Shown here: positions 1-44,338 of the stretch, in pieces | How positions within the stretch are numbered: position 1 is the first letter of the stretch | Layout: each line of letters starts with the position of its first letter | Origin: an uncultured Lachnospiraceae bacterium | GTDB lineage: Bacteria; Bacillota; Clostridia; Lachnospirales; Lachnospiraceae | Length of the DNA: 64,000 nucleotides | Reading direction: 5' to 3' | NCBI GenBank assembly: GCA_902775555.1 | Contig: CACYMQ010000002.1 | Location: 42,794 to 106,793 of the forward strand | The notes under the pieces: generated by a model | Told to the model about the DNA's origin: nothing | Database searches by the model: none | The model's input: only the letters and a program-made list of their open reading frames with translations | Made by a program: the position numbers and the translations under genes

Positions 1-3000
1 AGCCTCCGCAGGGATTTTCTCCCTCGTCACAGATCCAGTATTCCTGATTTCCGTCCGTCGTACAGGTTGCTTCCTTTGCTTCGACCCTGGTCAGCTGATG
101 GACGTGTCCTTTCTTCGGTATGGTCACAGTCTGTGTATGAACGGGATTATTCTTACATGTGCGTGTTTCTTCTCCCTCTTCCAGTTCGGTAGCTTCCTTC
201 GTCACTACCCATTCCCCCCATGCATGTGCATTGGGATCGATTGCTACCGGACGAGACTCCGTATGGGTCGGATCTAAGGAACATACACGGATTTCTTCAC
301 CCATCTGTTCGCAGGTGGGCGCTTTCTTCAGCATCCAGTCTCCGTAGCTGTGACCGGTGGCACGGACCACGGTATCCTCCTTATCGATGGAAAGATTTCC
401 GTATTTGTCCCTGAAATACCGTCCGCAGGGATTCTCTCCCTGATCACAGATCCAGTACTCGATATTTCCGTCCGTCTCGCAGGTTGCAAGCTTTGAATAC
501 ACATGCTTCAACTGATGCACGTGATCCTTCTTCGGAAGGAGTCGTGTCTCCGTATGCTCCTCGTTGTACCGGCAGGTACGGGTTTCTTCTCCTTCTTCCG
601 TCTCCGTTGCGGTCCTGGTCACCTTCCACTGTCCCCAGTCATGGGCATTCGGATCCATGTCCGTCTCTCTTGTTTCCTTATGTGTGGCATCCAGCTTGCA
701 GACTCTGGTCTCTTCTCCCTTCTCACAGCAGGTGGCCTGCTTTGTGACCGTCCAGTCTCCCCAATCATGATTCGTGGCAGTAAGGACCGTATCCTCCCTG
801 TCGATCCGGATCTTCCCGTCAGCGTCACGGAAATACAGACCACAGGGATTCTCCCCCTGATCACAGATCCAGTACTCAATATGTCCGTTTTCAATACAGG
901 TAGCAGCTTTTGCAGGAATCCGGGTCAGCTTGTGAACATGGCTCTTCTTCGGAATGATCCTGGTATCGGTATGACCGGGATCATAGCTGCAGTACCTTGT
1001 TTCCTGGCCTTCCTCGGTTTCCGTTGCGGGCTTTGTCACCTCCCACTTTCCGAAATCATGTGCATTCGGATCGATCGAAACTGCTCGTTTATCCACATGT
1101 TTCGGATCATTCTTACAGATACGGATCTCTTCACCCTCGGAAGAACAGGTAGGAGCCTTTTGAAGCGTCCAGTCACCCCAGTCATGGCTGCTCGATGCGA
1201 TGGGGATTTCCCTTGTTTCTCTATGGCTGTCACTTAAGCTGCAAACTCTTTCTTCCACACCGGCCACAGCGCAGGTGGGCGCCTGGACCATAGTCCATTC
1301 TCCCCAGTTATGAGCCTGCGGATCGATGGCGAGGGTTCTTGTTTCCTTATGATTTGCATTGTTCAGGCAGACACGTTCCTCTTCCCCCCTGGATGTACAG
1401 GTGGGTGCTTTCGTCTGCACCCAATCCGTGAATTCGTGTGCATCCGGTATCGGGTCAATGATACGAGTCTCCACATGCGTCGGATCATTCTTGCAGGTCC
1501 GTTCGTCAAGCCCTTCGGCCATACAGGTCGGGTACTTCGTCCGAACCCAGTCATACCAGGAATGTCCGATGGCACGAAGGACGGTATCCTCTATGTTGAT
1601 CTCGTCATCCGCATCTGCGCTCACATCCGCGAAGCAGCGGTTACAGGGATTATCGCCCCTGTCACAGATCCAGTATTCGATATTTCCATTCTCGGTACAG
1701 GTCGCATCCTTATAAGAAACCTTCGTCAGTTTATGCTCATGATCCTTCGTCGGTATCTTTCTGGTCTCTTTATGCTCGGGATTATCCTGACAGACTCTTT
1801 CCTCCTCGCCTTCTGCCAGTTCCGTTGCTTCCTTCACTACCGTCCACGGACCCCAGTCATGCTCATCCGGATTTATGGGGATTCCCTCCATTTCGGTATG
1901 GGACGGATCATTTCTGCAGACCCGTTCTTCCAAACCTTCCTTACTGCAGGTGGGCGCAAATGTCACCTGCCAGTCTCCCCAGGAATGACCATAGGCCGGA
2001 ACCATCCGGATCACTCTGGAAAGCTCTTCGCCACAGCCTGTACAGTAGAACGCCTCCTCGACCTTACCGTCCGTTTCGCAGGTTGCCTGGACGATATTCT
2101 CCCGGCACTTGTCTCCGGGCGTGTGATGATGCCAAAGCGCCACATAGACCGGATTTGTGTCCGGCATATGATCCGGAAGTGCCACCGGATCCTGAGACTC
2201 ACTGTCCTTCAGTGCCCAGCCCAGGAATACACAATCCTCCTGTGTGGGATCCTCCGGCTGGGAAACAACCGCATCATAGATCGCGGTGATCGTCCTCTTC
2301 GTTTCGGTCGCTCCGAAATGGTCCTTCCAGACGCCACCGTTTGCATCATAAGTAATGGAATACTCAGCCGGTACCCAGACTGCCTGCAGAGTCAGATTCT
2401 CCGCGGGCATTTTCTCCGGAAATGCCGGATTCCATCCTGAAAAGATAAAATGTTCCTTCACCGGATCCGCCGGTGCCTTGCCGCTCAGTTCTTCATCAAA
2501 GAGCACCTGAAGCGGTGAGATCTTGCTTCCTCCCACGGTGTCAAAGGAAATGGTATAGCTTTCCTTCTTCCAGAAGGCAGTGAGCCTCACATCATTATCC
2601 GGCATCGTCATGGGGAATACGACCTTCTCGTAGCCCGCCGGATCCGAAGCGCTGATCCCATACCATCCGTCAAAGGCATATCCTGTTCTTACGGGATCTG
2701 CCGGCTTCTGGATGATGGCTCCTTCCTTTGCGACAACCGAAGCGATCGGACTACCACCTGCCGAATCAAAGATTACGGAATGGTCTTCCAATGGAATTTC
2801 TTCATATTTTGCGGTAAATGCCAGCAGCTTCTGTCCATTCACCGTAGTTGTCATCGTCCAGTCATTAAACGTGAAATCTTCCTTCGCACTGTGAAGGGTT
2901 CCTTTGCTGTCCTCCCATCCGACAAACCGATGCCGCTTGTCCGGTACAGGTGCTTCCGCAAGAGTGATCACTCTTCCGAGAGCCGCCTTCTGTTCCGAAA

Positions 3001-5923
3001 CAAATGCTGCGCCGTATGCGCCGGGATCATACTGAACAGAGATCTCCGCCGGCGTCCATTCTGCCTTCAGTGTAACCACAAGAGAATTGTAATTCTTCTC
3101 CGGATGCGGGATCTTAATGGATGTTCCGTCAGCTGCCTTGTCGCAATAAGTCGGAGTCAGTTCCATGGAGGCTTCCCATTTTACGCCGTCATTTGTATAC
3201 CAGCCCTTCAGAACATATCCGTCTCTTGTGGACTGCTCCATAGCCTCCATACGGAGCTTCTCATTGATATTTACCGTAAACTGACGGCTCTGTACCTTTC
3301 CGTCCGAACCTTCTCCCATGGTTGCGGGTGTATTTCGATAGGAATCCTCCTGATACAGCACGGAATTGTACCAGCTGTAACCCTGATCGATGGCCTCCTG
3401 ATCATAGGAGCCAAGGTCCAGATGAACCTCCAGCCGGTCCGGGATCAGAACCGGATACAGCTTCAGGGTCTCTGTCGGCATGACTCCGCTGAAATCATAA
3501 ATCGCATAGGTATATTTATCCTCAGGATCATCCTGCTGGTCCTCCGGCAAAGATTCCTTATAGTGATAGGATCCCTCTGTCTTCGGTGTAAGCGACCAGC
3601 CTGCGAAGGTATGATCCTCTTTCGACAGTGTCTTCCCGGCATACCGGCCAAGGGATGCCCCGAACCAGACCTTTTCCACGCTGTTTACCTTTGTGCCTGC
3701 GATATCATCGTAATAGATCAGGTCAAAGGTTTTCCTTGAGTAATACAGGTAGAGTTTTCCATTATTTCCGGGTAAACGGATCGAACCGCCCGGAAATACC
3801 GGTTCCAACCTTGCATAGGGATCATACTGTGTCTGATAGCCAAGGAATGTATAATTCTCGATCTCCCGCGGTTTATAGGTATCCGCATCGGAAACCACGG
3901 AATCCTCAGGCTCTTTGTAACTGCCGTCGGCTTCCATAAGGACCTCGTAGATATCCGTATGCTTTACGGAATCGATGTGAACATCCAGCGTACTCTTGTA
4001 GTAGAAGGCAGATCTCGCTTCCTCCCAGGTCGGTTTGGTAAAGAAATGATAATCTCCCTCCGAAAGACCGGAGACAGTCGTTCCCTCTGCCTTTACCGCC
4101 TGAGATGCATCTTGTCCGTCCTTGTAGTACCAGACCGGAAGATCCTGATCCACGGCAAAGGTGACCGAACCATTGCCGGATCCGTAATCCGTCGGCTGGA
4201 CAGTACCTGCCTGGATCTCCGGATATACCAGAAAGATCCGCTGTCCAAGGGAGGTACCTGTTCCGTTTAGACCCGCACGGAAGTTGACCCATGTATAGTT
4301 ACCGGGACTCAGCTTCTTCCAACGGAGACTTCCCGTAGATTCTCCCGTGGCGGGATCGATCACCGGCATATCATATTCGACCGATCCGTTTGAATACATG
4401 TAATATACATCGAGCCCCGTAAAATCTTCCGGTATCCCTCCGTCCTTGTATGTGAGTCGGGTGGTAAAACGTAAACGGTCTCCATATTCGTCCTCCATAT
4501 CCGGTTCGATGGATAAGAGTTCGATCTTATACAGGAGCTTGGGGATCGTATTTTTCTCCACATGAGACGGATCCAGATTGCAGACTCTTTTTTCCTCACC
4601 ATCCTGGATCGCCGTAGGCTGCTTTGTCACCTCCCAGGCTCCCCAGTCATGTGCCTCCGGATCCACGGGTGTATCAACTGTAGTTCTCGAAAGCTCCTCC
4701 CCGCATCTCGGGCAGGTCATAACACTGACGTAGGATCCGGGTGTTGTACAGGTCGCGGGTACTTCGTCTTCCCGGGTCTCCACCGGTTCGGCATGTCCCT
4801 CTTCACATACATTCTCGAAACAGGCTGTAAGCTTCAGCCCGTCTGCCGGAACAGTAAAGATGGTCTTCTTCTCTTCGTTCTCCCCACCTTCCGGATCGTA
4901 TTCGTTCACCCATTTAACAAAGATCCAGCCGGGTGCCGGTACAGCTTCCAGAGAATACTTCGTTCCTACATCGCAATACTCCGAATACTGGGTCTTCTCC
5001 TCACCGTTGACAAGGATCTTACACTTATCCCTCGCCCCGGCATCCACTTCCGCAATAAATGCGGACCGATACGAATCCACATATTCCCTGATCCGGATGC
5101 CGATGTTCGTGTTATTGTCAAAAGTGACTACCAGCATGGATTCCGGTTTATCCGTTTCAGGGTATTCGATCTCATCCGGAACAACGATCTTGTAATCGTC
5201 TCCTTCTTTCAATATCTGCAAAACCGAAGTTCCGTTTACACCGAGCACCTTCGAAACGTCTTTCCGGATACTAAGCGCTTCAAACACTTCCGAAAGATAA
5301 AAGGTCTTCGACTCTCCCTGAACAGTCGAATTGTACGGATAATCATATTCGGCAACATATTCGGCGCTGGTTCTCTTATAAACGAACTCAATCACAAACA
5401 GGGAGAATCCGTCTGTCTCCACGGATACCACACCATTTGCCTCATCCACGGAAGAAGACAGTTCTTCGGCGTGATACTCTGCCGCATCCGTTTCATGAAG
5501 ATGATAGACGACCGGATCCAGACTCTCATCCGCTGCCGCAGCTGTACGGAAGGAGATCTCCACATTCTGTCCGTCCCGTGGCTGCAGTTCCTCACCGTCG
5601 GCATCGATCACCTTGATGTCGAAGGAATGGGATTCCATAACGCCGGTATCCTCCTCCATCAGCTCCGACACGGCATCAAAGGCAGATTCCTTCTCACTGC
5701 CGGTCACCTTTCGAACCGATAAGGATGCTCCCTCCGGAAATGTGCCTTCCTCCGCCCGCACGGTAACGGTCACGCCGTCTGACTCCACGGAACGTTCAAA
5801 TGCAGGCAGTCCGGAAAGATCCGCCTCCTTCTCTGCGAACATGGAAGACGGCAATGTACATAGCACAAAAAAACATGCCAGAAGAACCGCGATCAGTTGT
5901 TTCAAATGTCTTGATTTTATCAT
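1..5923 (-). CDS. Giant secreted/surface repeat protein (>1974 aa, 3' end beyond window): signal peptide, InlB B-type repeats, Cys/His-rich repeats
   Basis: ATG at 5923 overlaps the upstream stop (ATGA). N-terminus MIKSRHLKQLIAVLLACFFVLCTLPSSMFAEKE is a signal peptide. The frame is still coding at base 2 (…YWICDEGENPCGG), and the track lists no closed ORF in this frame. InlB B-like motifs at about 2.4-3.8 kb (FDSAGGS…PADPVRTGYAFDGW). 417-bp DNA repeats (cacagatccagta at 28, 445, 862; another copy at 1663). Confidence 0.85.
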   Translation of the reverse strand, partial: MIKSRHLKQLIAVLLACFFVLCTLPSSMFAEKEADLSGLPAFERSVESDGVTVTVRAEEGTFPEGASLSVRKVTGSEKESAFDAVSELMEEDTGVMESHSFDIKVIDADGEELQPRDGQNVEISFRTAAAADESLDPVVYHLHETDAAEYHAEELSSSVDEANGVVSVETDGFSLFVIEFVYKRTSAEYVAEYDYPYNSTVQGESKTFYLSEVFEALSIRKDVSKVLGVNGTSVLQILKEGDDYKIVVPDEIEYPETDKPESMLVVTFDNNTNIGIRIREYVDSYRSAFIAEVDAGARDKCKILVNGEEKTQYSEYCDVGTKYSLEAVPAPGWIFVKWVNEYDPEGGENEEKKTIFTVPADGLKLTACFENVCEEGHAEPVETREDEVPATCTTPGSYVSVMTCPRCGEELSRTTVDTPVDPEAHDWGAWEVTKQPTAIQDGEEKRVCNLDPSHVEKNTIPKLLYKIELLSIEPDMEDEYGDRLRFTTRLTYKDGGIPEDFTGLDVYYMYSNGSVEYDMPVIDPATGESTGSLRWKKLSPGNYTWVNFRAGLNGTGTSLGQRIFLVYPEIQAGTVQPTDYGSGNGSVTFAVDQDLPVWYYKDGQDASQAVKAEGTTVSGLSEGDYHFFTKPTWEEARSAFYYKSTLDVHIDSVKHTDIYEVLMEADGSYKEPEDSVVSDADTYKPREIENYTFLGYQTQYDPYARLEPVFPGGSIRLPGNNGKLYLYYSRKTFDLIYYDDIAGTKVNSVEKVWFGASLGRYAGKTLSKEDHTFAGWSLTPKTEGSYHYKESLPEDQQDDPEDKYTYAIYDFSGVMPTETLKLYPVLIPDRLEVHLDLGSYDQEAIDQGYSWYNSVLYQEDSYRNTPATMGEGSDGKVQSRQFTVNINEKLRMEAMEQSTRDGYVLKGWYTNDGVKWEASMELTPTYCDKAADGTSIKIPHPEKNYNSLVVTLKAEWTPAEISVQYDPGAYGAAFVSEQKAALGRVITLAEAPVPDKRHRFVGWEDSKGTLHSAKEDFTFNDWTMTTTVNGQKLLAFTAKYEEIPLEDHSVIFDSAGGSPIASVVAKEGAIIQKPADPVRTGYAFDGWYGISASDPAGYEKVVFPMTMPDNDVRLTAFWKKESYTISFDTVGGSKISPLQVLFDEELSGKAPADPVKEHFIFSGWNPAFPEKMPAENLTLQAVWVPAEYSITYDANGGVWKDHFGATETKRTITAIYDAVVSQPEDPTQEDCVFLGWALKDSESQDPVALPDHMPDTNPVYVALWHHHTPGDKCRENIVQATCETDGKVEEAFYCTGCGEELSRVIRMVPAYGHSWGDWQVTFAPTCSKEGLEERVCRNDPSHTEMEGIPINPDEHDWGPWTVVKEATELAEGEEERVCQDNPEHKETRKIPTKDHEHKLTKVSYKDATCTENGNIEYWICDRGDNPCNRCFADVSADADDEINIEDTVLRAIGHSWYDWVRTKYPTCMAEGLDERTCKNDPTHVETRIIDPIPDAHEFTDWVQTKAPTCTSRGEEERVCLNNANHKETRTLAIDPQAHNWGEWTMVQAPTCAVAGVEERVCSLSDSHRETREIPIASSSHDWGDWTLQKAPTCSSEGEEIRICKNDPKHVDKRAVSIDPNAHDFGKWEVTKPATETEEGQETRYCSYDPGHTDTRIIPKKSHVHKLTRIPAKAATCIENGHIEYWICDQGENPCGLYFRDADGKIRIDREDTVLTATNHDWGDWTVTKQATCCEKGEETRVCKLDATHKETRETDMDPNAHDWGQWKVTRTATETEEGEETRTCRYNEEHTETRLLPKKDHVHQLKHVYSKLATCETDGNIEYWICDQGENPCGRYFRDKYGNLSIDKEDTVVRATGHSYGDWMLKKAPTCEQMGEEIRVCSLDPTHTESRPVAIDPNAHAWGEWVVTKEATELEEGEETRTCKNNPVHTQTVTIPKKGHVHQLTRVEAKEATCTTDGNQEYWICDEGENPCGG
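28..1700 (-). repeat. Intragenic ~417-bp (139-aa) Cys/His-rich repeats
   Basis: Motif cacagatccagta recurs at 28, 445, 862 (417-bp period) and 1663. Units encode HxH…ATC…GN.EYWICD.GENPCG and HxWGxWxV.K.AT..EEGEE.R.C…H. Confidence 0.85.
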
Positions 5924-6678
5924 GCTCCGGTTTCCTTTCGTTTTCTGTTGACGGAACCGCCCGGCTCCGAATGAATAAGCTGCTTCTTATGATCCGTCTG
6001 AAACAGGGAATCAACGACGGCCTGCTTTCTCTGGGGTTCCAGGTCGATCACGCGATGTGTAGCACGGATCCTCTCGGCCGTTTCATGATCATGGGTTGCA
6101 AGGATCACTGTGGTTCCCTGTCTGTGAATGATCTCCAGTAATCGGAAGATCTCCTTCGAAGCTTCCGGATCCAGATTCCCGGTAGGCTCGTCTGCCAGAA
6201 GAACCTTCGGGTAGTTCAGCAGCGCCCGCGCCATACAAACCCTCTGGGTCTCTCCTCCGGAAAGTTCCTCCGGATATCTCCTGTAGAGATGCTCCGCGTC
6301 CATCATTTTCAGCACATTCCGGATCCGATGGTCCGTATCCGCCCTTCGGCCCTTTGTCATGGACATGGAAAGCTCCAGATTATCATATACCGTATACCCG
6401 TCGAAAAGCTTCGCATCCTGGAAGACCACCCCCAGCTTCCGCCGATATTCCGAGATGCCTGCGGGTCGTATGGAGGACAGTTCCTCTCCGTCCACCTTTA
6501 TGCTGCCGGTATAACCGGTCAGTTCCCTGATCAGAAGATGGATCAGGGTTGTCTTGCCGCTTCCGCTTCTTCCGCTGACCAGTACGAATTCTCCCCGTCC
6601 GATATGTTCGGTAAAATCCGTAAATACAGGAGCCTCAGAGTCAGGATAGGACATACACATTTTCCTGAAACTGATCAT
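5920..6678 (-). CDS. FtsE/LolD-like ABC ATP-binding protein (no permease adjacent)
   Basis: Walker A GRSGSGKT, Q-loop VVFQD, signature LSGGE, Walker B LLADEP, H-loop ATHD. 4-bp overlaps with both neighbours. Confidence 0.9.
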   Translation of the reverse strand: MISFRKMCMSYPDSEAPVFTDFTEHIGRGEFVLVSGRSGSGKTTLIHLLIRELTGYTGSIKVDGEELSSIRPAGISEYRRKLGVVFQDAKLFDGYTVYDNLELSMSMTKGRRADTDHRIRNVLKMMDAEHLYRRYPEELSGGETQRVCMARALLNYPKVLLADEPTGNLDPEASKEIFRLLEIIHRQGTTVILATHDHETAERIRATHRVIDLEPQRKQAVVDSLFQTDHKKQLIHSEPGGSVNRKRKETGA

Positions 6679-9047: not shown

Positions 9048-9132
9048 ACCCTGCTCACTCCTGCTTTCCCTGTTCTTCCATGGATATCACGCCCGGCCCG
9101 TCCTGCCGTACTCTGCTGCCGGTGCCGCACAC

Positions 9133-9363
9133 CTATCTGCCGCGATCCGTCCGAAAGACCGTCCCCCTGTCAAAAACGGAGGGCGCTTTATTGATGGAAG
9201 TTACATCGGTTTCTTCCTTCAGTCCTTTGTATTCATTCAGAGGAGGCGTCTTCTTTCTCTCCGCATAGATCATCCAATCCGGCTCCTCTGCATAGTAAGG
9301 CTCTCTCGAAGCATTCTTTTCACTTCTTCTGAGATCATTGACTAAACGGTCATTCAGTCCCAT
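9133..9363 (-). CDS. Small hypothetical protein (76 aa)
   Basis: RBS AAGGAG upstream of ATG; fills the operon gap between the SH3 gene and the ATPase. Confidence 0.65.
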   Translation of the reverse strand: MGLNDRLVNDLRRSEKNASREPYYAEEPDWMIYAERKKTPPLNEYKGLKEETDVTSINKAPSVFDRGTVFRTDRGR

Positions 9364-9374: not shown

Positions 9375-10124
9375 TTACTGCGCATTCTTGTCAAATAATG
9401 TCTTATATTCTTCCTTCTTGATCTCCTGCAGCTTCAAAAACCGGTTGTAGCAATATCCGCTCTTCCCTTTATAGAGCACTTTGGACCACTCTTCCCCTTT
9501 TTCAAGCACACAGCCCACGGACCCCGGATATAATGCGACTACGGTCTTCGCCTTCCCGTTTGCCTCTTCCCGGATCCGGAGGGTGGTTCCCTGATTGGTT
9601 GTGACGAAGGAATAATAAGGTCCCGCAGCCGGCATTTGCACGACCGTCTTCCCGGAGGGATCCTCCGATGTCTTCTCCTCCGTTCCCTTCTCGCGGGTAT
9701 TCTTCTCCGTTACAGCCTCCGTCACCTTCTCCGGACCGGGTTCCACAGGCACTGCCACTGTCTCCGTGGTGCTTTCCGTTACTGTCTCCGACCCCTTCGT
9801 TCCGGGATCTGCCTTCGTTTCGGAGCGTGCCTCGGTGGGGAGATCGAGGATCGGTGCCGCCTTACCTTCCGTCGCAGCATCCGGCGCCGGCACATTGCCT
9901 CTTTCCGTACCCGTCTCCCCGAGCCGGTGCTGCACATCTTCCGTATCCGCTTCTATAATATCGATATAATCCTTCTCTGCGGTTTTCTCAACGGCAGCGT
10001 CCTTCTTACCCCGAAGTTCGAAGTAAGATTCCTTGCCGTCTAAAAGGAACAGGGCAAGGACTGCGGTGAACACATAGAACACCATGACCGCAGCAAGAAC
10101 ACGTTTTAACTTCTTTCTGCTCAT
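9375..10124 (-). CDS. Membrane-anchored SH3b-domain protein
   Basis: N-terminal TM (VLAAVMVFYVFTAVLALFLL), E/T/K/P-rich linker, C-terminal SH3b-like LRIREEANGKAKTVVALYPG…GEEWSKVLYKGKSGY. Confidence 0.85.
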   Translation of the reverse strand: MSRKKLKRVLAAVMVFYVFTAVLALFLLDGKESYFELRGKKDAAVEKTAEKDYIDIIEADTEDVQHRLGETGTERGNVPAPDAATEGKAAPILDLPTEARSETKADPGTKGSETVTESTTETVAVPVEPGPEKVTEAVTEKNTREKGTEEKTSEDPSGKTVVQMPAAGPYYSFVTTNQGTTLRIREEANGKAKTVVALYPGSVGCVLEKGEEWSKVLYKGKSGYCYNRFLKLQEIKKEEYKTLFDKNAQ

Positions 10125-14613: not shown

Positions 14614-14614
14614 T

Positions 14615-19100: not shown

Positions 19101-19149
19101 ACTATTCTTCCTCTGCTGACTCGATACTCATCCCGTGCGACACGGCATG

Positions 19150-37945: not shown

Positions 37946-39177
37946 TGATCTCCTCCGGACTGTATCTCGTAAAATGCAAAATTTCCGCCCTTCTCATTAC
38001 ATACGAAGGAATAGTTCAGATCCCCCCGCCTGAAGGTATAAATATAAACTGTATACTGCTGGTCGAAGCTGTTTACGACCACGTCGTCGCTGTACACCAT
38101 CGTGGTGTCCATATTGATCCGCCCCTTCAGCGTATTCTGTCTGTCATTCAGGATATTGATCGCAACCGCCTCCGGTAAGATAACGGAGGAGTATCCCTCA
38201 TAGACCGGTTCCCCGAGGATCTGCTTTACGACCTCGATCCCTCTTGCCTCCAGTCTTCCCGACCGGAATACATTTGACAGGACGATCACATTGACTGCTT
38301 TCATCTCATCATCGGTCGCTGCTCCGTCACCCTTTGCAAGATACAGTGCATTGATGTCGGACAGATGGATCACGGCATCACTGCCCAGATCCTCATTTTC
38401 CTCATACAGCTTCTGTTTTCCGAGATATTTCTCCCGGATCTCCTTCGGCGTTTTTCCAAGCAGTTCCCCATATATGATCTCATCCGAAGCGAAGGTTCCT
38501 TCATACACCGGATTCCCGCCGGAATCAAAGAGTTTGCCTTCGCCCTCCTTCATTCCTTCAAAAAAGGTCCCCTCATACTCTCTTGTCCCGTTGGGACGGA
38601 ACAGCGTTCCCTGTCCTTCATAGAGATTTGCATGGAAATTGCCCTTATAGCGAACCGCTCCGCTCTCGTAGCTCAGCGTACCTTCGCCCTCATAGCGGTT
38701 CTTCTCAAATGTTCCCGAGTACAGCACCACTCCGTCGCGTGAAAAGAGTTTCCCCTCTCCCGTCACATAGCCCTTGCTGACCTGCCCTTCATAAGCGATA
38801 TATCCCGACTTGGCCTTGATCCGGACCTTGTCGTCTGCCAGGCGCAGCATAAAGGAATTGTAGGAATAGGTAGGGATCCCGCCGGAGCTGCCGGAGAACA
38901 GTTTCAGCGAAGAGGTGATGTACCAGATGCTGAGGACTCCTACTACGATGATGATCAGGTAGGCAAGGCGTTTGCTGATCATCCAGCGGAATACCGTGTA
39001 GTAGTCATCCTTGTTCTTCGGTCTTACATCGAACAGCTTTACGAAGAAATCCCGGATCCTGCCAATGATCCTGGTCCTTACAAAATCCCAGCTGAGCAGC
39101 AGGCGGAGTTTGGACACCAGGGACGCGAACTTTGATTTAATTGAAGAAAAAAGTACACTGAATAGATTCTGTCCCAT
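37942..39177 (-). CDS. Membrane-anchored MORN-repeat protein
   Basis: One TM, then tandem YEG.F…YEG.G.L repeats (YSGTFEKNRYEGEGTL, YKGNFHANLYEGQGTL, YEGTFFEGMKEGEGKL). Confidence 0.88.
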   Translation of the reverse strand: MGQNLFSVLFSSIKSKFASLVSKLRLLLSWDFVRTRIIGRIRDFFVKLFDVRPKNKDDYYTVFRWMISKRLAYLIIIVVGVLSIWYITSSLKLFSGSSGGIPTYSYNSFMLRLADDKVRIKAKSGYIAYEGQVSKGYVTGEGKLFSRDGVVLYSGTFEKNRYEGEGTLSYESGAVRYKGNFHANLYEGQGTLFRPNGTREYEGTFFEGMKEGEGKLFDSGGNPVYEGTFASDEIIYGELLGKTPKEIREKYLGKQKLYEENEDLGSDAVIHLSDINALYLAKGDGAATDDEMKAVNVIVLSNVFRSGRLEARGIEVVKQILGEPVYEGYSSVILPEAVAINILNDRQNTLKGRINMDTTMVYSDDVVVNSFDQQYTVYIYTFRRGDLNYSFVCNEKGGNFAFYEIQSGGDQ

Positions 39178-39195
39178 TTCTCCCTGCTTCCTATC

Positions 39196-41658
39196 TTACT
39201 GGTCGACCCGGATATATCCCGACTGAGAAGCAGCCTCATCTTCACTCATATATTTCTCACATTCGAAGATATACCATTTTGTCATACCGTCCTCCGGACA
39301 TTCCTTCAGAATCTCCATGAACTGGTTTCGAGCCAGATAATAATCTCTTGAACCATACAGCTCAAGCGTTGCTTCAAATTTCTCCCTGTTGATCAGCATC
39401 AGCTGACGTGTCTTGGCCGGATATGCATCCAGCATCTCGTAGAACCGGACCTCTCTTCCGCTTTCCTCAAAGTATGCTTTCCCGATATACCGTTTCTCAC
39501 CGACATCATGCGCTTTGATGATATTCTCGGTCGCAACCATCGGGATCCCGAGCCGGCGGAACCATTCCGCATAAGAATCCAGTTCTCTGGAATACTCGGA
39601 ATCGATATAGGTAAGACTCTGGGAATCCGATCCTGCCACACCATATATCAGCTGATCCCGGTATAACAGAATGGAAGAATCCAGTATTCCTGCGGCGGCG
39701 CTGTTCTGGCTGACCTGCAGGATCTGAGGTACCGTAGTTTTCTCATCCTTAAGCAACAGGAACCTCATATTTGCAAAAGACGGTTCTCTGGAGATCAGTA
39801 CCCCTTCGTTCTGCCTTGCATAGACCTCCATGCTTGAGAAGATCCTTGAAATGTTCTGTACCCGGTGCTGAAAATCCTCTTCCTTATTTACGGAGAGCAG
39901 AATAACGATGCCGGCTACCTTCACCACATCTCCGTTTCTGACATCCAGAATGGACTCCTTGCCCATGATGTCCTCGATGCCTCTTGGTGCGAAACGGTAA
40001 TAGGCTTCGTAGATCATATATTTATCATAGTTGATCTGATCGTATCGCTTGGCGAGCTCTCCGTAGCATTGCCAGAGTTCCCGCATATCCCGTGATATCT
40101 TCTTCGGTGACTCCTCACGCTCTTCCTTTTCGAGAGCAAGTCCCTTCAGCGCCCTGGAGAACCGCTTCAGATCGACATGCTGCATGTACAGAACAAAGAA
40201 GAGAAGGACGCTTCCGACCAGATAGATCACGATGAAGATGACTCCGATATCCCGAACGGATGCCCAGGAACGATCCAGCCCTTTCTGACTCCGATAGACA
40301 GCCACTGCAGCCACATCATCCTTCGGATTCTCTCCCTGATATGCCACAGCGATCATCTCCTCCCCTTCCAGAAGGAAGGTTACAGATGCGGAGTCCGGAT
40401 CCTTCTTCATCTGGTCCACCAGAGCGGTCATTTCTCCGCCGTACAGATAGGACACCGGCATGCGGTTATTGCCGCTGCAATCCGCAAGCACAAGTCCCGT
40501 ACTCTTTCTCATGATGAAGGCATCATGGAAAACGTCTTGCTGATCACTGTACTTCACGATATTACTCAGTTCATCCAGGATCTCATAATACTTCTTACTT
40601 TCAAAGAATGTTTTCGAATCATAATCGACACCGGAAAGATCCTCCAGATTCTCCCGCATGACCATCCGGACCTGTGCCATATAGTTCTTCGTTTCATTCC
40701 TTTGGAACTGCTGTCTGATAAACAGAAACGCAACAAAAAGGATGAGGAAGAAGACCACTTCCGATCCGAGATACAGATAAACGATCCTGTCCCGTTCCTT
40801 CGTCAGTTTCAGGGTAAGGATCACAAGAATGATCCATATCGCGAGGATCCCCAGGATCCGGATCAGCCAGGAAGAACGAAGACGGATATTCTGCCCGAAG
40901 CTGAAACTGATGTTGTCCACCGCATTCTTCACATCGGGACTCGGTGCAAAATAGCCGGTGGGTGTATCACTGTCCATCAGAACATAAAGCTGTGCATTCC
41001 GGTAACATGCCTCAACGAAAAATCTCTCGGCGCTTCTGTCCTGATGAATGATATATTCCGGTTTTCTGAAATCATCTCTCGTAACCGGCGTGTCCGCCCC
41101 GTTTTTGTCCGGTTCGGATGTATCATCCTCCAGAAGATCCGACCCCTTCAGATCGGAAACCCGGAGCTGACATACGGAGACGCTTTTGCCATCCTCCGCA
41201 ATGATCGAAAGATACATGAACACATCATCCACCGTAATGGAACTGACCCGTCCCGTATCGGCAAGTGTAAAATGATCGGATACGCTTACCATCTCCAGCT
41301 CACTGTCATACACTATGATCCTGTAAACCCGGAAGGATCCGTCCTTATCCGTTTCATTCGAAGAATAAAGCGCATACAGCCTGCCGTTATAGACCGTTAA
41401 CTCATCGGAACGCTCCATACCTGCCGTACCGGCTCCTGTCATGGCCAAAACCTTCCCTGACGGGTCGATCCGATAGAGCCAACCCTTATGATTCCAGTTT
41501 TCCATGAAGAATACACCGGACTCTGTATCTATCGCACTGCTATCAGCCGTATATTCCGGTTTATGGCGCATCTCATCTGCCGAATCCGCAACGATGAAGA
41601 TCGCGCCCAATATGCTAAGTGCTATTATGCAAAGCACCATCCGCAGCTTTATGCTCAT
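39196..41658 (-). CDS. Multi-pass membrane protein with degenerate class III nucleotidyl-cyclase-like domain and TPR-like tail
   Basis: Several TMs; HAMP-like linker; YYRFAPRGIEDIMGKESILDVRNGD cyclase-entry motif, but no F.DI..FT metal-binding motif; RYIGK…FYEMLD…F…YYLARNQF..IL..CPED tail. Confidence 0.65.
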   Translation of the reverse strand: MSIKLRMVLCIIALSILGAIFIVADSADEMRHKPEYTADSSAIDTESGVFFMENWNHKGWLYRIDPSGKVLAMTGAGTAGMERSDELTVYNGRLYALYSSNETDKDGSFRVYRIIVYDSELEMVSVSDHFTLADTGRVSSITVDDVFMYLSIIAEDGKSVSVCQLRVSDLKGSDLLEDDTSEPDKNGADTPVTRDDFRKPEYIIHQDRSAERFFVEACYRNAQLYVLMDSDTPTGYFAPSPDVKNAVDNISFSFGQNIRLRSSWLIRILGILAIWIILVILTLKLTKERDRIVYLYLGSEVVFFLILFVAFLFIRQQFQRNETKNYMAQVRMVMRENLEDLSGVDYDSKTFFESKKYYEILDELSNIVKYSDQQDVFHDAFIMRKSTGLVLADCSGNNRMPVSYLYGGEMTALVDQMKKDPDSASVTFLLEGEEMIAVAYQGENPKDDVAAVAVYRSQKGLDRSWASVRDIGVIFIVIYLVGSVLLFFVLYMQHVDLKRFSRALKGLALEKEEREESPKKISRDMRELWQCYGELAKRYDQINYDKYMIYEAYYRFAPRGIEDIMGKESILDVRNGDVVKVAGIVILLSVNKEEDFQHRVQNISRIFSSMEVYARQNEGVLISREPSFANMRFLLLKDEKTTVPQILQVSQNSAAAGILDSSILLYRDQLIYGVAGSDSQSLTYIDSEYSRELDSYAEWFRRLGIPMVATENIIKAHDVGEKRYIGKAYFEESGREVRFYEMLDAYPAKTRQLMLINREKFEATLELYGSRDYYLARNQFMEILKECPEDGMTKWYIFECEKYMSEDEAASQSGYIRVDQ

Positions 41659-42500
41659 TGTTGCAAAGACTCCGTTCCTATATTCTTAAAGTTATTGATA
41701 AACCACCGGAAGATCGGAAGATCTCCCCAAACTACATGAGTAAGCAAAAGAACCAGCGCCACGATCCCCAGGATCACACAGACCCAGAAGAGGATCCCAA
41801 ACAGAAGGTCCGCATTTCTGACGAAGAAACTCTTGATACGGATAAAAAAACCGACACGTTCTACGGGCATGGCCGCGATCTGAAGATCCCGGTACAGCTC
41901 GGTAAAACTGTTGTAGCTGTTATTCTCACACTTCCTTGAGATCAGTTCGAAACTGACATTCTTCTGATCCGCTTTGGAGGACAGGAGGTCCCGAAGGATC
42001 TCGGCACATTTGACTGTACAGTCCCTCTCCGTCCTTTTCAGATCCAGAGCCTGAAGATCCACCACAAAGGTGAGATAGGTGGAACCGTCCCTTGCCAGAT
42101 TGATACAGCTCTGTTCCAGAAGCAGGTACAGCATGGGGAAAGGAAGGGACGCCGTCATACAGGTCATCAAAAGATTCCGCCCGATCTCCTCCACCTGACT
42201 CAGGGTGTACGCATCTCCCTCAAAGAAACGGTCGATCGGACGTTCCTGCCGGTAGGGAAAGACCAGGATATACTCATTCCCATGCGAGAAGGCATCCACC
42301 AGCTGGCTCTCTTCCAGAGATTTGATCCTGCCGGATGCTTCCATCAGGGACCGGATGATCTCATGATCCTTTACCGCTATGATAAAGAAATTCCTCCCAT
42401 CCATGTCATCCGTGGGACGGACGACATAGCATGCGTTAGCATCCCCGCTGAACAGGGTAGAAACCACCGTATAGCTTGACTTGTCTGATTCAAACGTCAT
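41655..42500 (-). CDS. Pseudokinase-like protein with C-terminal TM
   Basis: Kinase-like order of motifs (CYVV; IIAVKD; LVDAFSHGNEYILVFPY; CINL) without HRD/DFG; C-terminal TM LLFGILFWVCVILGIVALVLLL. Confidence 0.55.
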   Translation of the reverse strand: MTFESDKSSYTVVSTLFSGDANACYVVRPTDDMDGRNFFIIAVKDHEIIRSLMEASGRIKSLEESQLVDAFSHGNEYILVFPYRQERPIDRFFEGDAYTLSQVEEIGRNLLMTCMTASLPFPMLYLLLEQSCINLARDGSTYLTFVVDLQALDLKRTERDCTVKCAEILRDLLSSKADQKNVSFELISRKCENNSYNSFTELYRDLQIAAMPVERVGFFIRIKSFFVRNADLLFGILFWVCVILGIVALVLLLTHVVWGDLPIFRWFINNFKNIGTESLQQ

Positions 42501-42508
42501 AGAATCCC

Positions 42509-44338
42509 TTAGAATCCGCCATCTCCGGCAGATCCATCCCTCCCTGCAGGTTCACCGACCATCTTCTTTCTGACGATGGCATACGCATAAGTACAGATCA
42601 CCGGCATCTCCGTGCAATAGATCCGGATCTCATATACACCTTCCCTGGTGGGTGCGGTGTAAACTCCGTCGGAACTGATCTCGCCGCTTCCCGGTGAAGT
42701 CAGTTCATACGTGATGCCTGTCGCTTTCATATTGTTGAATCTTACACCAAAGAAATGACTTTCCTTCGTTCCCATGATGACCGTCGGAGTTGCAACGGAA
42801 ATGCTCTTGTCATAGTAATCTTCGGTGATCTCCATCTCATCTCCGGACGGGAAGCGGATCGCAACCCACCGGAAGGTAAGTGTCAGATAATCCACATCCT
42901 TCAGCAGCCGGACAGCCACTACAAAATTTCCTTTTTCATTTAGAACCTTGACTGCCGTTTCCACATCCGTCATCGGATCTCCCTTTCTGCTGAACAGATC
43001 CGGATTTCCGTAGAAGGTACACTTCTGGTTTGCGGCAAGTCCGGGATCGTCCGATACATAGGTATATCCAATGTCTACATATACATTTCCCATACCCAGG
43101 CCATGGGGGATCTCACCGGAATACCGGATATCTCCGGCTCTTGCATTCTTTCCGAGTGGAACCTCTACCGTGCCCGTAGCGATATTGGAGAATTCCGTCC
43201 GGGAACCTCCCTTACTCGAAGTCACCTGCTGCTGACCCTCTGTCCGTGCAGCGGTCAGATCCACTTCCTTTTTGAAGAAGGAAAGATACTGGTTTCGCAT
43301 CATCATCTGTGCCGGCGTCATGATGTAATTCTTAACTGTATCCTCGGTGATCGTATCGATCAGATAGTTATTTGACGTTCTGACGATCTTCAGATCCGCC
43401 AGAGGAACGGAATCGTCCAGAAGACCGATCCCCCGCATCTCCAGATTCACCTTGCCGGCTGCATTTCCGACCAGCTGCATCGGATCCAGCTTACTGAGGA
43501 TCACACGAAGGGTGAAGTTGGACGCTGTGCTTATGGCACTGTCATCCTCAAAAGCAAACCCCGTTCCGCTCCGTAGGATCAGTTCGGTTGCGATCGCCGG
43601 TGTATCCTGAACACGAACCCAATACTCCTTTTTCAGGGAATCTCCGAAGGCAAGCCTCAGGTTCTCAACACTGAATTCGATCTCATGCTCTCCGTCTGCT
43701 GTGACAAATGCCGGCATCTCCAGGACTCCCCGGCAGTTCAGCGAAACATCATTTCCGCTGAGCTTACGGATCTCAAGGACGATCTTGACATTTCCTCCCT
43801 TGCACACCGTGGAAGGCACCATGATCTCGCCAACGTAATTCTCGCTCTTAAACAAGGTCTCCTTCGTCAGGAATTCCGTTTCCGGGGAATAATCGGTCTC
43901 TACGGATTCCTTATCCGAAAGGAACAGCTCATAGCCTTCGGAAATACGGTTGAACTCGTATTCCTTCTCATCCTCCTTACGGTTCACGGAATATACGTTG
44001 TGGATCTCCTGCTCCTTAAAACGGATGCTGAGCCGCGCAACATCTCCCGTAAGCCGGTCAAAGCCCTCGATGGCGGACAGTTTCTTCACCGTGGTGGAAT
44101 CCACGATGATCTCCCTTCCCCGCCCGTCTATGGCGGAACCGCTCTCGATCAGGACCGATTGGTCATCCAATGAAAAAACACCCAGTCCGCAGATCACACC
44201 GGACCCGTACATAAGTCCGTTCATGAACCGCATCTTATTGATGTGATAGTCCTGTTCGGCCTGGAAATCAGCCGAGGTCAGCATCTTTCCCGGATAATAT
44301 CTGTTTCGTTCAAAAGGATAAAGCTTGTTATTGTTCAT
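42509..44338 (-). CDS. CIS-associated fibre/baseplate-attached-like protein (609 aa), first gene of the operon
   Basis: N-terminal ERNRYYPGKMLTSADFQAEQDY…GSGVICGLGV motif recalled from CIS-locus proteins; Ig-like C-terminus (GEISSDGVYTAP). Confidence 0.65.
   Translation of the reverse strand: MNNNKLYPFERNRYYPGKMLTSADFQAEQDYHINKMRFMNGLMYGSGVICGLGVFSLDDQSVLIESGSAIDGRGREIIVDSTTVKKLSAIEGFDRLTGDVARLSIRFKEQEIHNVYSVNRKEDEKEYEFNRISEGYELFLSDKESVETDYSPETEFLTKETLFKSENYVGEIMVPSTVCKGGNVKIVLEIRKLSGNDVSLNCRGVLEMPAFVTADGEHEIEFSVENLRLAFGDSLKKEYWVRVQDTPAIATELILRSGTGFAFEDDSAISTASNFTLRVILSKLDPMQLVGNAAGKVNLEMRGIGLLDDSVPLADLKIVRTSNNYLIDTITEDTVKNYIMTPAQMMMRNQYLSFFKKEVDLTAARTEGQQQVTSSKGGSRTEFSNIATGTVEVPLGKNARAGDIRYSGEIPHGLGMGNVYVDIGYTYVSDDPGLAANQKCTFYGNPDLFSRKGDPMTDVETAVKVLNEKGNFVVAVRLLKDVDYLTLTFRWVAIRFPSGDEMEITEDYYDKSISVATPTVIMGTKESHFFGVRFNNMKATGITYELTSPGSGEISSDGVYTAPTREGVYEIRIYCTEMPVICTYAYAIVRKKMVGEPAGRDGSAGDGGF

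Follow-up and report, generated by a model that had tools for sequence, protein, structure and literature searches.

Does the contractile injection system (CIS) encoded in this stretch of DNA leave the cell as a free particle, or does it act at the envelope of the cell that builds it? The question was addressed for a 64-kb window from a rumen Lachnospiraceae bacterium, the window here meaning the whole stretch analysed. Judged from its genes, the locus encodes a complete CIS of the Bacillota lineage, whose baseplate is of the Tail_P2_I kind and has a Cis13-like peripheral protein; a conserved envelope module and a signalling block are joined to this CIS in one fused gene cluster.

Gene array and injection-system core

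Positions 1-44338 of the window hold about 30 densely packed genes with all long ORFs on the minus strand, as are all features located below. A lower limit of 99 aa gave 28 ORFs, and 23 of the 27 junctions among them are overlaps or gaps of at most 50 bp. Two of the four larger gaps are occupied by small ORFs kept in relatives, one of 76 aa directly upstream of the AAA+ ATPase gene (9133..9363; five relatives have it in this place too, with tblastn identities of 34-52%) and one of 59 aa (28378-28557; 57-89% in >30 loci). The sole long non-coding spacer (28953..29241) comes directly after the tube gene and is predicted to be strongly structured (MFE -124.8 kcal/mol, z -6.97).

The sequence-only reading had described some 30 co-oriented, tightly spaced genes under one promoter near 44.4 kb, with no internal intrinsic terminator, and the gene array itself is confirmed. 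Minus-strand terminator scans of 1-44338 gave no convincing terminator at an intergenic position, and a predicted promoter-like region (44393..44425) has two GTGTCCTTT direct repeats followed by an extended -10, TGTTATAAT, at 44401-44393, upstream of the first (609-aa) gene. Co-orientation itself says little here, because the 64-kb window and the adjoining 42 kb on its left side have genes on this one strand only. Coordinate 1 is a window artefact, because the giant gene there runs to 3073 codons and related genes extend about 20 kb further left, where the cluster continues into a variable region.

Every CIS core part was assigned by Pfam and NCBIfam, so that the components named earlier, from sheath to ATPase, were all matched. 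The cap protein (Cis16/Pvc16-like, 32725..33315; Pvc16_N, E 6e-27) is followed by a 246-aa protein (31901..32641) whose position is kept in 31 loci and for which family searches gave no match, and then by the PAAR-like spike tip (31515..31904; DUF4280, E 2e-31). The sheath (Cis2, 29781..31475) matches Phage_sheath_1 and 1C, with 9EZM as the top PDB match and 8BKY/8BL4 next, and the inner tube (Cis1, 29242..29742) matches Phage_T4_gp19 (E 4e-28). Beyond the spacer, a 120-aa ORF (28590-28952; identity of 56-92% across all relatives) and the 59-aa ORF together span 28378..28952; the two might act as paired chaperones or belong to one product made by frameshifting.

A 445-aa protein (27021..28358) has a tube-like, Cis5-like N-terminus (CIS5_fam, E 4e-5; weak gp19 match) and carries repeated NRSxNT..PSKW.FPGS motifs. 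The repetitive 1644-aa protein after it (22090..27024; 1040 to 1644 aa in relatives) has no family match and is a tape-measure candidate from its position. Two CIS_tube proteins, the tube initiators (20323..22087; E 2e-16 and 2e-15), precede a split spike/hub (18210..20316) made of a 388-aa VgrG-related N-part and a 296-aa Phage_base_V protein (E 8e-17), with NCBIfam VgrG_rel on both parts. The baseplate genes are a gp25-like sheath initiator (Cis9, 17683..18186; GPW_gp25, E 9e-17), two baseplate-J/Cis11-type wedge proteins of 1025 aa and 702 aa (12505..17692; TIGR02243, E 1e-21 and 1e-28; Pfam Baseplate_J; PDB 9GTP, baseplate J-like) and a Tail_P2_I/Cis12-type protein (11409..12503; Tail_P2_I, TIGR02242, partial CIS12_fam). 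The AAA+ ATPase (Cis15/Afp15-like, 6675..9047; Pfam AAA, E 7e-28) is 71-84% identical among Lachnospiraceae loci. No ORF of the locus matched head, integrase, TssJLM, ClpV, holin or endolysin families, in agreement with the earlier view that it is neither a prophage nor a T6SS and has no lysis cassette.

The envelope module and its conservation

The first gene, at the 'tail fibre' position, encodes a 609-aa Cis13-like, probably eBAP3-type, baseplate-peripheral protein (42509..44338). It is no anchoring novelty of this system: residues 8-156 match NCBIfam CIS13_fam (E 6e-27), consistent with the eBAP3 class of Bacillota fibres, a published class that is described as TssK-like and whose members are presented as tail fibres with which extracellular CIS bind their receptors (PMC12923769). 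In three relatives (G028, G250 and G090) the protein directly follows Tail_P2_I. Its 38 orthologues are conserved over the full length, gap-free, the C-terminus as well as the N-terminus, and show no domain swapping; such uniform conservation is more in keeping with an unchanging partner in the producing cell than with target receptors that vary.

Beside this gene, the envelope module encodes kinase-like, cyclase-fold, MORN, OEP/TolC and secreted 850-aa proteins. The 281-aa protein (41655..42500) carries its kinase-like domain on the cytoplasmic side and is anchored by a C-terminal TM (235-253). It is a candidate pseudokinase, as proposed before: the profile of 37 orthologues lacks an HRD-type catalytic loop, but its kinase likeness is weak (E 0.0055). 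The 820-aa 4-TM receptor (39196..41658) comprises two ectodomains, a coiled coil, a class III cyclase fold and a TPR-like tail. Its AF2 model (pLDDT 82) retrieved adenylyl/guanylyl cyclases by Foldseek (E 6e-7 to 1e-4), and column statistics show that the metal-binding positions are not conserved, bearing out a degenerate cyclase fold. The 411-aa bitopic MORN protein (37942..39177; Pfam MORN, E 4.9e-11) has a basic cytoplasmic N-tail, a single TM (66-84) and a MORN-repeat ectodomain, and is the accessory gene most widely retained among relatives.

The 683-aa secreted protein (35894..37945; Pfam OEP) has a TolC fold with two C-terminal Ig-like domains and is the sole OEP match in the genome. 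Its profile matches both TolC repeats (E 4e-5), and its AF2 model (pLDDT 79.5) gave 42 Foldseek matches at E <0.001, all of them outer-membrane factors. We infer that the alpha-tunnel was retained, the beta-barrel became vestigial and the Ig-like domains were gained. The host genome lacks Omp85/BamA, and the host is therefore monoderm, as had been assumed. A TolC-shaped protein is thus encoded in a cell without an outer membrane. The lumen of a TolC trimer is about 3.5 nm wide, too narrow for a CIS tube of about 8-9 nm, and the protein could serve as a literal conduit only in a different oligomeric state. The gene directly after the TolC-like gene, always so in relatives, encodes an 850-aa secreted protein (33345..35897) with a signal peptide, rich in helices and with a Gly-rich linker; its orthologues are 763 to 1604 aa, and no family or PDB relative was found.

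Whether the flanking genes are conserved beside CIS cores in other genomes was the point most likely to overturn the idea of a fused locus. With the TolC-like profile we retrieved 51 species-level loci, mostly from rumen Lachnospiraceae, cultured Butyrivibrio strains among them, and judged synteny where the contig was long enough. Cultured carriers include Butyrivibrio sp. Su6 and AE2015 and Lachnospiraceae bacterium AD3010 and XBB2008. The six-gene order 609-281-820-MORN-TolC-850 beside the CIS core (cap, DUF4280, sheath, tube) was found in 51 of 51 loci where the contig permits, and STAS, ABC, kinase and AAA genes recur in other Lachnospiraceae. In G028 and G090, from other families, the envelope block is permuted as one unit behind Tail_P2_I. 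Relatives without TolC retain Cis13-like, TM kinase-like, MORN and 4-TM proteins, and a reduced module lacking TolC and 850 occurs in more distant Clostridia. Since about half of the related CIS in the order lack the TolC/850 pair, and since loci with TolC do not form a single clade in the sheath tree, the pair is not essential to a shared mechanism. Our literature search turned up no paper that describes the envelope module, and the claim that no characterised system has such a gene set stands to that extent.

The signalling block and variable neighbours

A second block of STAS, kinase, ABC ATPase and AAA ATPase genes is conserved within Lachnospiraceae. The STAS protein is of the SpoIIAA/RsbV type (11096..11395; Pfam STAS, E 6e-17; PDB SpoIIAA/RsbV, E 1e-8 to 1e-6), and its gene after P2_I is conserved in the family. 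Next to it lies a membrane-anchored GHKL kinase-like protein (10121..11062; HATPase_c, E 9e-20), missing in Butyrivibrio sp. Su6, whose ATP-binding domain is of the histidine-kinase type (like HK853/WalK), not of the SpoIIAB type. An FtsE-like orphan ABC ATPase with no adjoining permease gene (5920..6678; TIGR02673, E 1e-64, under the cut-off) is kept in Lachnospiraceae loci, where in most it adjoins STAS. The accessory assignments to MORN, OEP, HATPase_c, STAS and ABC families were thereby confirmed, as were the Flg_new repeats. The SH3b assignment of the 249-aa protein (9375..10124), which has an N-terminal TM, was recovered in part: its C-terminal domain matches SH3_3 (E 1e-5), but at 26.1 bits against a Pfam cut-off of 27, and the protein is poorly conserved.

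Upstream, a two-component pair (44477..46586) consists of a LytS-type histidine kinase (44477-45778; His_kinase and HATPase_c) and a response regulator (45768-46586; Response_reg), found directly upstream of the locus in part of the relatives only. A 745-aa surface protein (46611..48848), which has a signal peptide and is anchored by a C-terminal TM, gave no Pfam match; it is often upstream of the locus in relatives, and in 22 loci tblastn placed it upstream of the 609 gene (26-50% identity). The 3073-aa surface protein, whose 5' two-thirds occupy 1..5923, has a signal peptide, Listeria-Bacteroides repeats (Flg_new) and a C-terminal TM. It had been taken as belonging to the system, but G016 and the other relatives have no orthologue at the equivalent position, which makes it a variable neighbour.

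Past the window edge, downstream of the ATPase, the variable region contains large cytoplasmic enzymes, GNAT genes and SpoIIE-type phosphatases, the last recurring near the locus. Here it encodes cytoplasmic proteins of 1514 aa and 1641 aa, and a relative has a calpain-like protein of 1667 aa. These large enzymes are cargo candidates, and the earlier remark that no toxin is recognisable was partly an effect of where the window ends.

Possible modes of action

The mode of action of a CIS is not reliably readable from sequence (PMC12998442). The nearest solved sheath is that of the membrane-bound T6SS-like CIS of H. borinquense (9EZM, E 3e-107), the Streptomyces cytoplasmic CIS sheath gives E ~1e-95, and Afp and PVC give ~1e-45. 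The former label of Afp/PVC eCIS therefore fits the gene set, cap and AAA ATPase included, but not the sheath. If the system were nevertheless a classical extracellular CIS, which we consider rather unlikely, particles would be freed by lysis genes elsewhere or by the envelope proteins, and the 609-aa protein would be a fibre binding targets; the module would serve release, by local opening of wall or membrane, or would sense when to produce particles. Besides the core set and the CIS13_fam match, two observations suit this account: a Paenibacillus fibre of the eBAP3 class, grafted on PVC, directed injection (PMC12923769), and cargo candidates lie at the 3' end as eCIS cargo genes do (PMC8213781). 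It is at odds with the missing lysis cassette, the lack of C-terminal variability in the fibre-like protein, the non-extracellular closest solved relatives, and five membrane or secreted proteins strictly syntenic between fibre and cap genes, an arrangement in no known eCIS.

The Streptomyces likeness raises the prospect, improbable in our judgement, of a cytoplasmic CIS which, when the cell is stressed, is fired into the membrane of the cell that made it and so brings about regulated cell death. Firing in Streptomyces requires the membrane protein CisA, whose gene occupies the fibre position (PMC12237407), and the MORN protein shares its layout of cytoplasmic N-tail, one TM and conserved ectodomain, as well as its gene position. 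CisA-like membrane proteins would then recruit and trigger the particle, with the ectodomains and a partner switch sensing envelope stress; the many signalling genes suit this, and no lysis cassette would be needed. However, extracellular, structural-looking TolC-fold/Ig and size-variable 850-aa proteins are hard to explain in this way, and the variable large enzymes with small adjacent genes at the 3' end resemble an inter-cellular effector arsenal. It is highly improbable that a separate surface or signalling operon, made up of the envelope and signalling genes, is simply travelling with a CIS island. Co-orientation is no proof against it, but the module sits between CIS genes (Cis13-like upstream, cap/PAAR downstream) and moves with them as one block in permuted clusters, adjoining genes share overlapping start and stop codons at the junctions, and the TolC-like gene is away from a CIS core in 0 of 51 loci.

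We tentatively favour, at a probability of about 0.42, a membrane-docked, signal-gated injector at the Gram-positive envelope. In haloarchaea, clusters of the T6SS mode tend to have a conserved membrane-protein gene beside them, and the closest relatives of haloarchaeal Cis11 are Firmicute Cis11 proteins (PMC11566945). The nearest solved sheaths, the need for CisA in Streptomyces firing and the lack of holin or endolysin matches in the locus also speak for this reading. The docked particle would be assembled in the cytoplasm and, rather than being released, would dock baseplate-first on the membrane. The 609-aa protein, with its TssK-like class, would be the link to cytoplasmic surfaces offered by the 281-aa kinase-like domain, the 820-aa cyclase fold and TPR tail, and the basic MORN N-tail. 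The MORN ectodomain, TolC-fold protein and 850-aa protein might together span the thin wall as a scaffold or passage, through or beside which spike and tube would be driven into a neighbouring cell in a T6SS-like, contact-dependent manner. Firing or assembly may be controlled by the 820-aa receptor ectodomains and by a STAS/kinase/SpoIIE-phosphatase partner switch, whose target could be the AAA ATPase or the orphan ABC ATPase; the LytS-type system would control transcription in some genomes and cargo would probably be drawn from the variable 3' region. If true, such an envelope-docked injector would be a mode so far undescribed for Gram-positive bacteria.

Gene order and the injection-system core

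Pfam and NCBIfam families were scanned for in all ORFs of at least 99 aa between window positions 1 and 48848. All ORFs of consequence in the window, which is C2:42794-106793 (C2 being contig CACYMQ010000002.1) of a 3.0-Mb genome of 99.5% completeness, are on the minus strand. In transcription order from 44338 downwards, the locus begins with an envelope module. Its first gene encodes a 609-aa protein, residues 8-156 of which match NCBIfam CIS13_fam (E 6e-27), and is followed by genes for a 281-aa protein with a transmembrane (TM) segment at the C-terminus, an 820-aa protein with four TM segments, a 411-aa protein with one TM segment and MORN repeats, a 683-aa protein with a signal peptide and an OEP/TolC match, and an 850-aa protein with a signal peptide.

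The genes of the contractile injection system (CIS) start with the cap (Pvc16_N, Pfam E 6e-27), a 246-aa protein with no assigned role, a PAAR-like protein (DUF4280), the sheath (Phage_sheath_1/1C), a gp19-type inner tube (Phage_T4_gp19) and a small 120-aa protein. A 445-aa protein with a Cis5-like N-terminus (27021-28358) then precedes a 1644-aa repetitive protein, which is at the expected tape-measure place and has no Pfam or NCBIfam match. Further downstream are two CIS_tube proteins as tube initiators, a split spike (388 aa, VgrG_rel, then 296 aa, Phage_base_V), gp25 (GPW_gp25), two TIGR02243/Baseplate_J proteins of 1025 and 702 aa, and a Tail_P2_I baseplate protein. The remaining genes encode a STAS protein, a membrane HATPase_c protein, a protein with a TM segment and an SH3b-like domain, an AAA ATPase (E 7e-28), an FtsE-like ABC ATPase and a giant secreted repeat protein. 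The tube-like N-terminus of the 445-aa protein is followed by at least five copies of the motif H.xNRSxNT..PSKW.FPGS, with acidic stretches between them.

Sheath, inner tube and baseplate set are all present, and CIS sheaths in the PDB match at E 1e-107 to 1e-41. The Pvc16/Afp16-type cap and the Afp15-type AAA+ ATPase, which separate CISs from tailocins and prophage tails, are also encoded. On these family matches, the core is complete and is a member of the Afp/PVC-type CIS superfamily, within the catalogued Bacillota baseplate type. A dense array with a full CIS core over 1-44338, as claimed by the sequence-only reading, is confirmed, with all core parts except the tape-measure candidate assigned by Pfam and NCBIfam and an overlap or a gap of at most 50 bp at 23 of the 27 junctions between long ORFs.

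The same reading had denied a type VI secretion system (T6SS), a prophage and a lysis cassette, and this holds. No TssJ, TssL, TssM, ClpV or TssB/TssC family matches any ORF of the locus, which has one phage-type sheath gene. A canonical T6SS (subtypes i-iii), with TssJ/L/M, ClpV and a two-part TssB/TssC sheath, is therefore rejected here. A prophage or an R-type tailocin is rejected as well, because no head, terminase, integrase or holin/endolysin gene was found among the scanned ORFs, which covered window positions 1-59260 and a further 20 kb on the left, and no holin/endolysin cassette is beside the tail genes.

Two apparent gaps are occupied by small ORFs kept in relatives. The 76-aa ORF at 9133-9363, absent from the gene list of the sequence-only reading, is immediately upstream of the AAA ATPase gene and is found in that same place at 34-52% identity in five other Lachnospiraceae loci. 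The 59-aa frame at 28378-28557, 3′ of the 120-aa gene, is found at 57-89% identity in more than 30 loci, including that of the distant genome G028, and is compatible with both a separate small gene and a frameshift extension of the 120-aa protein. The sole real spacer is 28953-29241 (289 nt), directly 3′ of the tube gene. It contains long hairpins without a U-tract (minimum free energy of -124.8 kcal/mol, z of -7 versus shuffles), and could be a stabiliser of the sheath/tube part of the mRNA or an attenuator of read-through. According to the sequence-only reading, a second copy of the spacer is at 58010-58134.

At 44393-44425, an extended -10 element with two GTGTCCTTT repeats upstream is read from the sequence. 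Terminator scans of the locus gave no convincing intergenic terminator on the coding strand, in agreement with the earlier claim that there is no internal one. Genes are on one strand across ~106 kb (window 1-64000 and C2:1-42793) with GC skew negative throughout, which points to a strong leading-strand bias. Because all genes of the window and of the adjoining 42 kb on the left share one orientation, co-orientation is uninformative on operons and was discarded as evidence for one. Window coordinate 1 is an edge of the window only, and the locus runs further.

Conservation and predicted folds of the envelope module

A profile of the TolC-like protein (683 aa), scanned against one genome per species, gave 51 loci. 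All are annotated as Clostridia, mostly rumen Lachnospiraceae, except for one metagenome-assembled genome labelled Bacteroides. Cultured carriers among them are Butyrivibrio sp. Su6, AE3009 and AE2015 and Lachnospiraceae bacterium AD3010 and XBB2008. Gene order (609-281-820-MORN-TolC-850-cap-246-DUF4280-sheath-tube) is the same in every one of the 51 with a long enough contig, and in none of these loci did the TolC-like gene stand apart from a CIS core. The accessory genes are thus conserved beside CIS cores, on which the sequence-only reading had staked its claim of a joint system. In G028 and G090, genomes of other families, the same block is relocated as a unit behind Tail_P2_I, the classical tail-fibre position.

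A related sheath is encoded by 22 of 301 sampled genomes of the order, and the TolC-like gene is present in 9 of the 21 sheath-positive genomes other than that of the window. The TolC-less loci inspected (G250, G162, G183 and G310) still encode Cis13-like and MORN proteins, and the ORF maps of G250 and G310 have a TM-anchored protein of kinase-like size and one or two 4-TM proteins between baseplate and cap. In the sheath tree, TolC-positive loci are interleaved with TolC-negative ones and are not monophyletic. Therefore, the pair of TolC-like and 850-aa proteins (TolC/850) has been lost or gained repeatedly, and its origin as a single-origin trait is unsupported. Judged by this distribution, the pair is an add-on to a more ancient membrane set.

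The TolC-like protein is encoded by the sole OEP-like gene of the genome. A PDB search with a profile built from 43 orthologues matched TolC in its two helical repeats (E 4e-5), and the AlphaFold2 (AF2) model (pLDDT 79.5) has 42 Foldseek matches with E < 0.001, all of them outer-membrane factors (best E 3e-8; TM-scores of 0.5-0.62 normalised to the target). In the model, the barrel hairpins of TolC are shrunk to a few residues, with strands of 2-4 residues, and two Ig-like domains are appended. No Omp85/BamA was found in the 99.5%-complete host genome by a search that was positive in seven of seven diderm controls. As modelled, this is a TolC-fold protein in a host without an outer membrane, with the two-repeat alpha-helical tunnel and without the 12-stranded outer-membrane beta-barrel.

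The 820-aa protein is modelled by AF2 (pLDDT 82) as a 4-TM receptor in which two ectodomains and a coiled coil are combined with a class III cyclase fold (Foldseek E 6e-7) and a helical-repeat tail, and its profile matches PDB sequences at noise level only. The metal-binding Asp position in beta1 varies (D in 10, E in 8 and R in 3 of 35), and the second position is partly kept (D in 22, S in 6). Because the metal-binding positions are not conserved, the protein is probably not a class III nucleotide cyclase despite its fold. It was also considered as an FtsX/MacB-like partner of the FtsE-like ATPase; this was rejected, as no FtsX/MacB family matches and the model is a receptor with a cyclase fold. 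The profile of the 281-aa protein weakly matches protein kinases (E 0.0055) and has no HRD-type loop, so its identity as a pseudokinase is plausible but not secure. The MORN protein has a basic cytoplasmic N-terminal tail, one TM segment and an ectodomain.

The 609-aa protein, for which no match was found among PDB sequences, is conserved over its full length without gaps in 38 orthologues, its C-terminus as much as its N-terminus. At the level of sequence, this pattern is unlike that of receptor-binding fibres. The secreted 850-aa protein (33345-35897) ranges from 763 to 1604 aa across species via insertions C-terminal to a Gly-rich linker, which suggests a surface-exposed, diversifying part; against PDB sequences, its profile matches Gly-rich linkers only.

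Signalling genes and the variable 3′ region

In Lachnospiraceae, the genes for the STAS protein, ABC ATPase, kinase, TM protein, 76-aa ORF and AAA ATPase are also kept 3′ of Tail_P2_I, with the ABC gene usually adjoining the STAS gene. Su6 is without the kinase and the SH3 protein. An ABC ATPase match in G028 was judged to be an unrelated transporter gene, as it is at a contig end with unrelated genes between. The STAS protein matches Pfam STAS at E 6e-17, and its best PDB matches are SpoIIAA and RsbV. For the SpoIIAB/RsbW-type serine kinase of a partner-switching module, the candidate is the neighbouring kinase; it contains HATPase_c, but its nearest structures are histidine-kinase catalytic domains. 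For the PP2C (SpoIIE/RsbU) phosphatase of a partner-switching module, two SpoIIE-domain membrane proteins are encoded 17-22 kb downstream, outside the window. They are paralogues (C2:23891-25720 and 20914-22683) with two TM segments each, and their genes are on either side of one for an acyltransferase. The loci of G016 (same genus), XBB2008 and AD3010 likewise have SpoIIE genes nearby.

The giant gene has 3073 codons, encoding a signal peptide, a C-terminal TM segment and then a basic tail. It had been taken as part of the system by the sequence-only reading, which had to be given up: no counterpart was found at the same position in any relative compared, including G016, and the protein is rejected as a conserved machine part. 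The family scan places GNAT, GNAT-like, 1514-aa and 190-aa proteins 3′ of it, followed by a 1641-aa protein with an ABC1/APH kinase-like domain, another GNAT, and then a SpoIIE-type PP2C phosphatase with two TM segments, the acyltransferase and the second SpoIIE phosphatase. This region is common to G016, with rearrangement, and different in other carriers. In Su6, the region consists of one GNAT gene, past which housekeeping genes begin; that of G048 encodes a second AAA ATPase and a 1667-aa protein carrying a calpain-type protease domain, and that of XBB2008 a SpoIIE phosphatase besides two large secreted paralogues. By its gene content, the region is a variable, arsenal-like zone. The earlier remark that no recognisable toxin is encoded was thus partly an effect of the window edge, beyond which this zone extends. 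Toxin-gene placement in a survey of extracellular CISs (eCISs) is consistent with such a variable 3′ zone (PMC8213781).

GNAT genes (206, 317 and 334 aa; C2:26117-39491) recur beside the large 3′ proteins, and that of Su6 (L076:15529-16389) is directly 3′ of the AAA ATPase gene; immunity, cargo modification or toxin activity is possible for their products. The 1667-aa protein of G048 (L083:11426-16429), encoded downstream of the CIS ATPase in the variable region, has a cysteine protease domain of the calpain type (E 3e-16), which is common among eukaryotes, and is a candidate effector. Many carriers encode a further AAA ATPase, a paralogue at 30-37% identity, mostly adjoining the Cis15-like one, for example at G041:C2:135828-137375 and G048:C4:62598-64148. 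In XBB2008, STAS is fused to an AMP-binding (acyl-adenylate forming) enzyme (L080:8852-10735), just 3′ of the SpoIIE phosphatase and downstream of the CIS locus.

Known systems and possible modes of action

[quoted passage not shown] The closest relatives of archaeal Cis11 are Firmicute Cis11 proteins, and in haloarchaea the membrane-bound mode correlates with the presence of a conserved gene for a membrane protein next to the cluster (PMC11566945). [quoted passage not shown] Its candidate anchor, compared by description, is a single 6-TM protein with nothing seen outside the membrane, whereas here three membrane proteins and the secreted TolC-fold and 850-aa proteins are encoded in a peptidoglycan-walled bacterial host.

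The sheaths of tCIS, PVC, Afp and AlgoCIS match at 1e-53 to 1e-41. Afp/PVC shares the sheath, tube, initiators, spike, gp25, PAAR-like protein, baseplate, tape-measure position, AAA ATPase and cap, but is more distant in sequence (sheath E ~1e-45). One sheath gene is found here instead of three, no Afp13-type adenovirus-like fibre is present, and the envelope and signalling genes are those which Afp and PVC are without. Of the Afp/PVC eCIS set proposed earlier, the list of core parts therefore stands, while the sheath is nearest to those of haloarchaeal and Streptomyces CISs. Outer-membrane factors (TolC, OprM, CusC and VceC) match the TolC-like protein over the whole fold; unlike them, it is in a host without an outer membrane, has no MFP or RND partner and has Ig-like domains added. 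With canonical T6SS (TssJ-TssL-TssM and TssK) there is functional analogy only, in a TssK-like link, cluster-encoded membrane proteins, a trans-envelope element, and control by a kinase/phosphatase and an ABC ATPase. This control layer resembles the TagQRST-PpkA-PppA pathway of P. aeruginosa. Compared with the T6SS membrane complex, the parts here are unrelated folds (kinase-like, cyclase-like, MORN and TolC-like).

The earlier central proposal of an envelope-tethered or intracellular CIS is reasonable but unproven. Our main reading, given a probability of about 0.4, is an outward, T6SS-like mode. The TssK-like Cis13 protein, together with the cytoplasmic domains of all three membrane proteins, would dock the particle on the cytoplasmic membrane, and the wall zone above the baseplate would be organised by the TolC-fold and 850-aa proteins and the ectodomain of the MORN protein. 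Receptor ectodomains and the STAS/kinase/SpoIIE switch would gate assembly or firing, and cargo would be supplied from the variable 3′ region. More tentatively, monoderm Clostridia (Lachnospiraceae of rumen and gut, and their relatives) may have a contractile secretion apparatus that is anchored to the cell and dependent on contact. It would be the counterpart of T6SS in Gram-positive bacteria, with unrelated envelope parts and firing gated by a STAS partner switch. Its envelope complex would consist of the TssK-like Cis13 protein, a tail-anchored pseudokinase, a pseudo-cyclase receptor, a MORN spacer and the TolC-fold protein, which would have lost its outer-membrane barrel and been repurposed to span the cell wall. 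Against the outward mode, a CIS tube is too wide to pass through the tunnel of a TolC trimer, the TolC/850 pair is dispensable in sister lineages, and the eBAP3 class (see below) is published as fibres on extracellular particles. Sequence alone is also a poor predictor of CIS mode (PMC12998442).

A conventional eCIS released from the cell is rather unlikely. In its favor, a 2026 catalogue describes fibre-like proteins with an N-terminal eBAP3 domain and Tail_P2_I adaptors in Bacillota and Actinomycetota, likens these parts to TssK and TssG of the T6SS baseplate, and treats eBAP3 proteins as receptor-binding fibres of extracellular particles, without describing an envelope module (PMC12923769). 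The 609-aa protein with its CIS13_fam N-terminus, and Tail_P2_I in the same cluster, fit this type by description. On the other hand, no lysis genes are in the locus, and the fibre-like 609-aa protein is not variable, being conserved over its whole length unlike receptor-binding fibres. A self-directed mode as in Streptomyces is less likely still. The sheath of that cytoplasmic CIS is the second-best match (~1e-95), and the S. coelicolor CIS (8BKY/8BL4/9GTP) also shares a baseplate-J match and a Gram-positive host. Its bitopic membrane protein CisA, required for firing, is encoded at the fibre position (PMC12237407), a placement like that of the locus here, and the MORN protein resembles CisA in bitopic layout. 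Streptomyces has one adaptor and no fibre-like gene, whereas the locus here has a Cis13-like gene, an envelope set of five proteins, a block for partner switching and an ABC ATPase. That the envelope module is unrelated to the CIS is hardly credible given its conservation beside CIS cores.

In the eCIS census, 0 of 64 Butyrivibrio genomes were eCIS-positive (Supplementary Data 6), and MORN was noticed only as a 'eukaryotic domain' enriched near eCISs (PMC8213781). The lineage may have been missed there, although the 64 do not necessarily include the carrier strains found here. Within the searchable literature on CISs in Lachnospiraceae, Butyrivibrio or Clostridia, no description of the envelope module was found, and the conserved envelope and signalling module appears to be undescribed in it. 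The earlier statement that no characterised system is known to have this gene set thus applies to that module, and not to the CIS core, which is of a catalogued type.

To our knowledge, only the cytoplasmic self-directed Streptomyces CIS has been characterised in Gram-positive bacteria, and we know of no cell-anchored T6SS-like system in them. The question addressed is how a contractile injector works through a Gram-positive envelope, for which the locus offers a concrete and conserved list of candidate parts for docking at the envelope and for gating. Because carriers are cultured, tractable rumen strains (Su6, AE2015, AE3009, AD3010 and XBB2008), the question is directly testable by cryo-ET and genetics. 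The locus also exemplifies the retention of a TolC-fold protein by a bacterium that has no outer membrane. In the rumen and gut, the system could have a bearing on antagonism among microbes or on interactions with protozoa and fungi.
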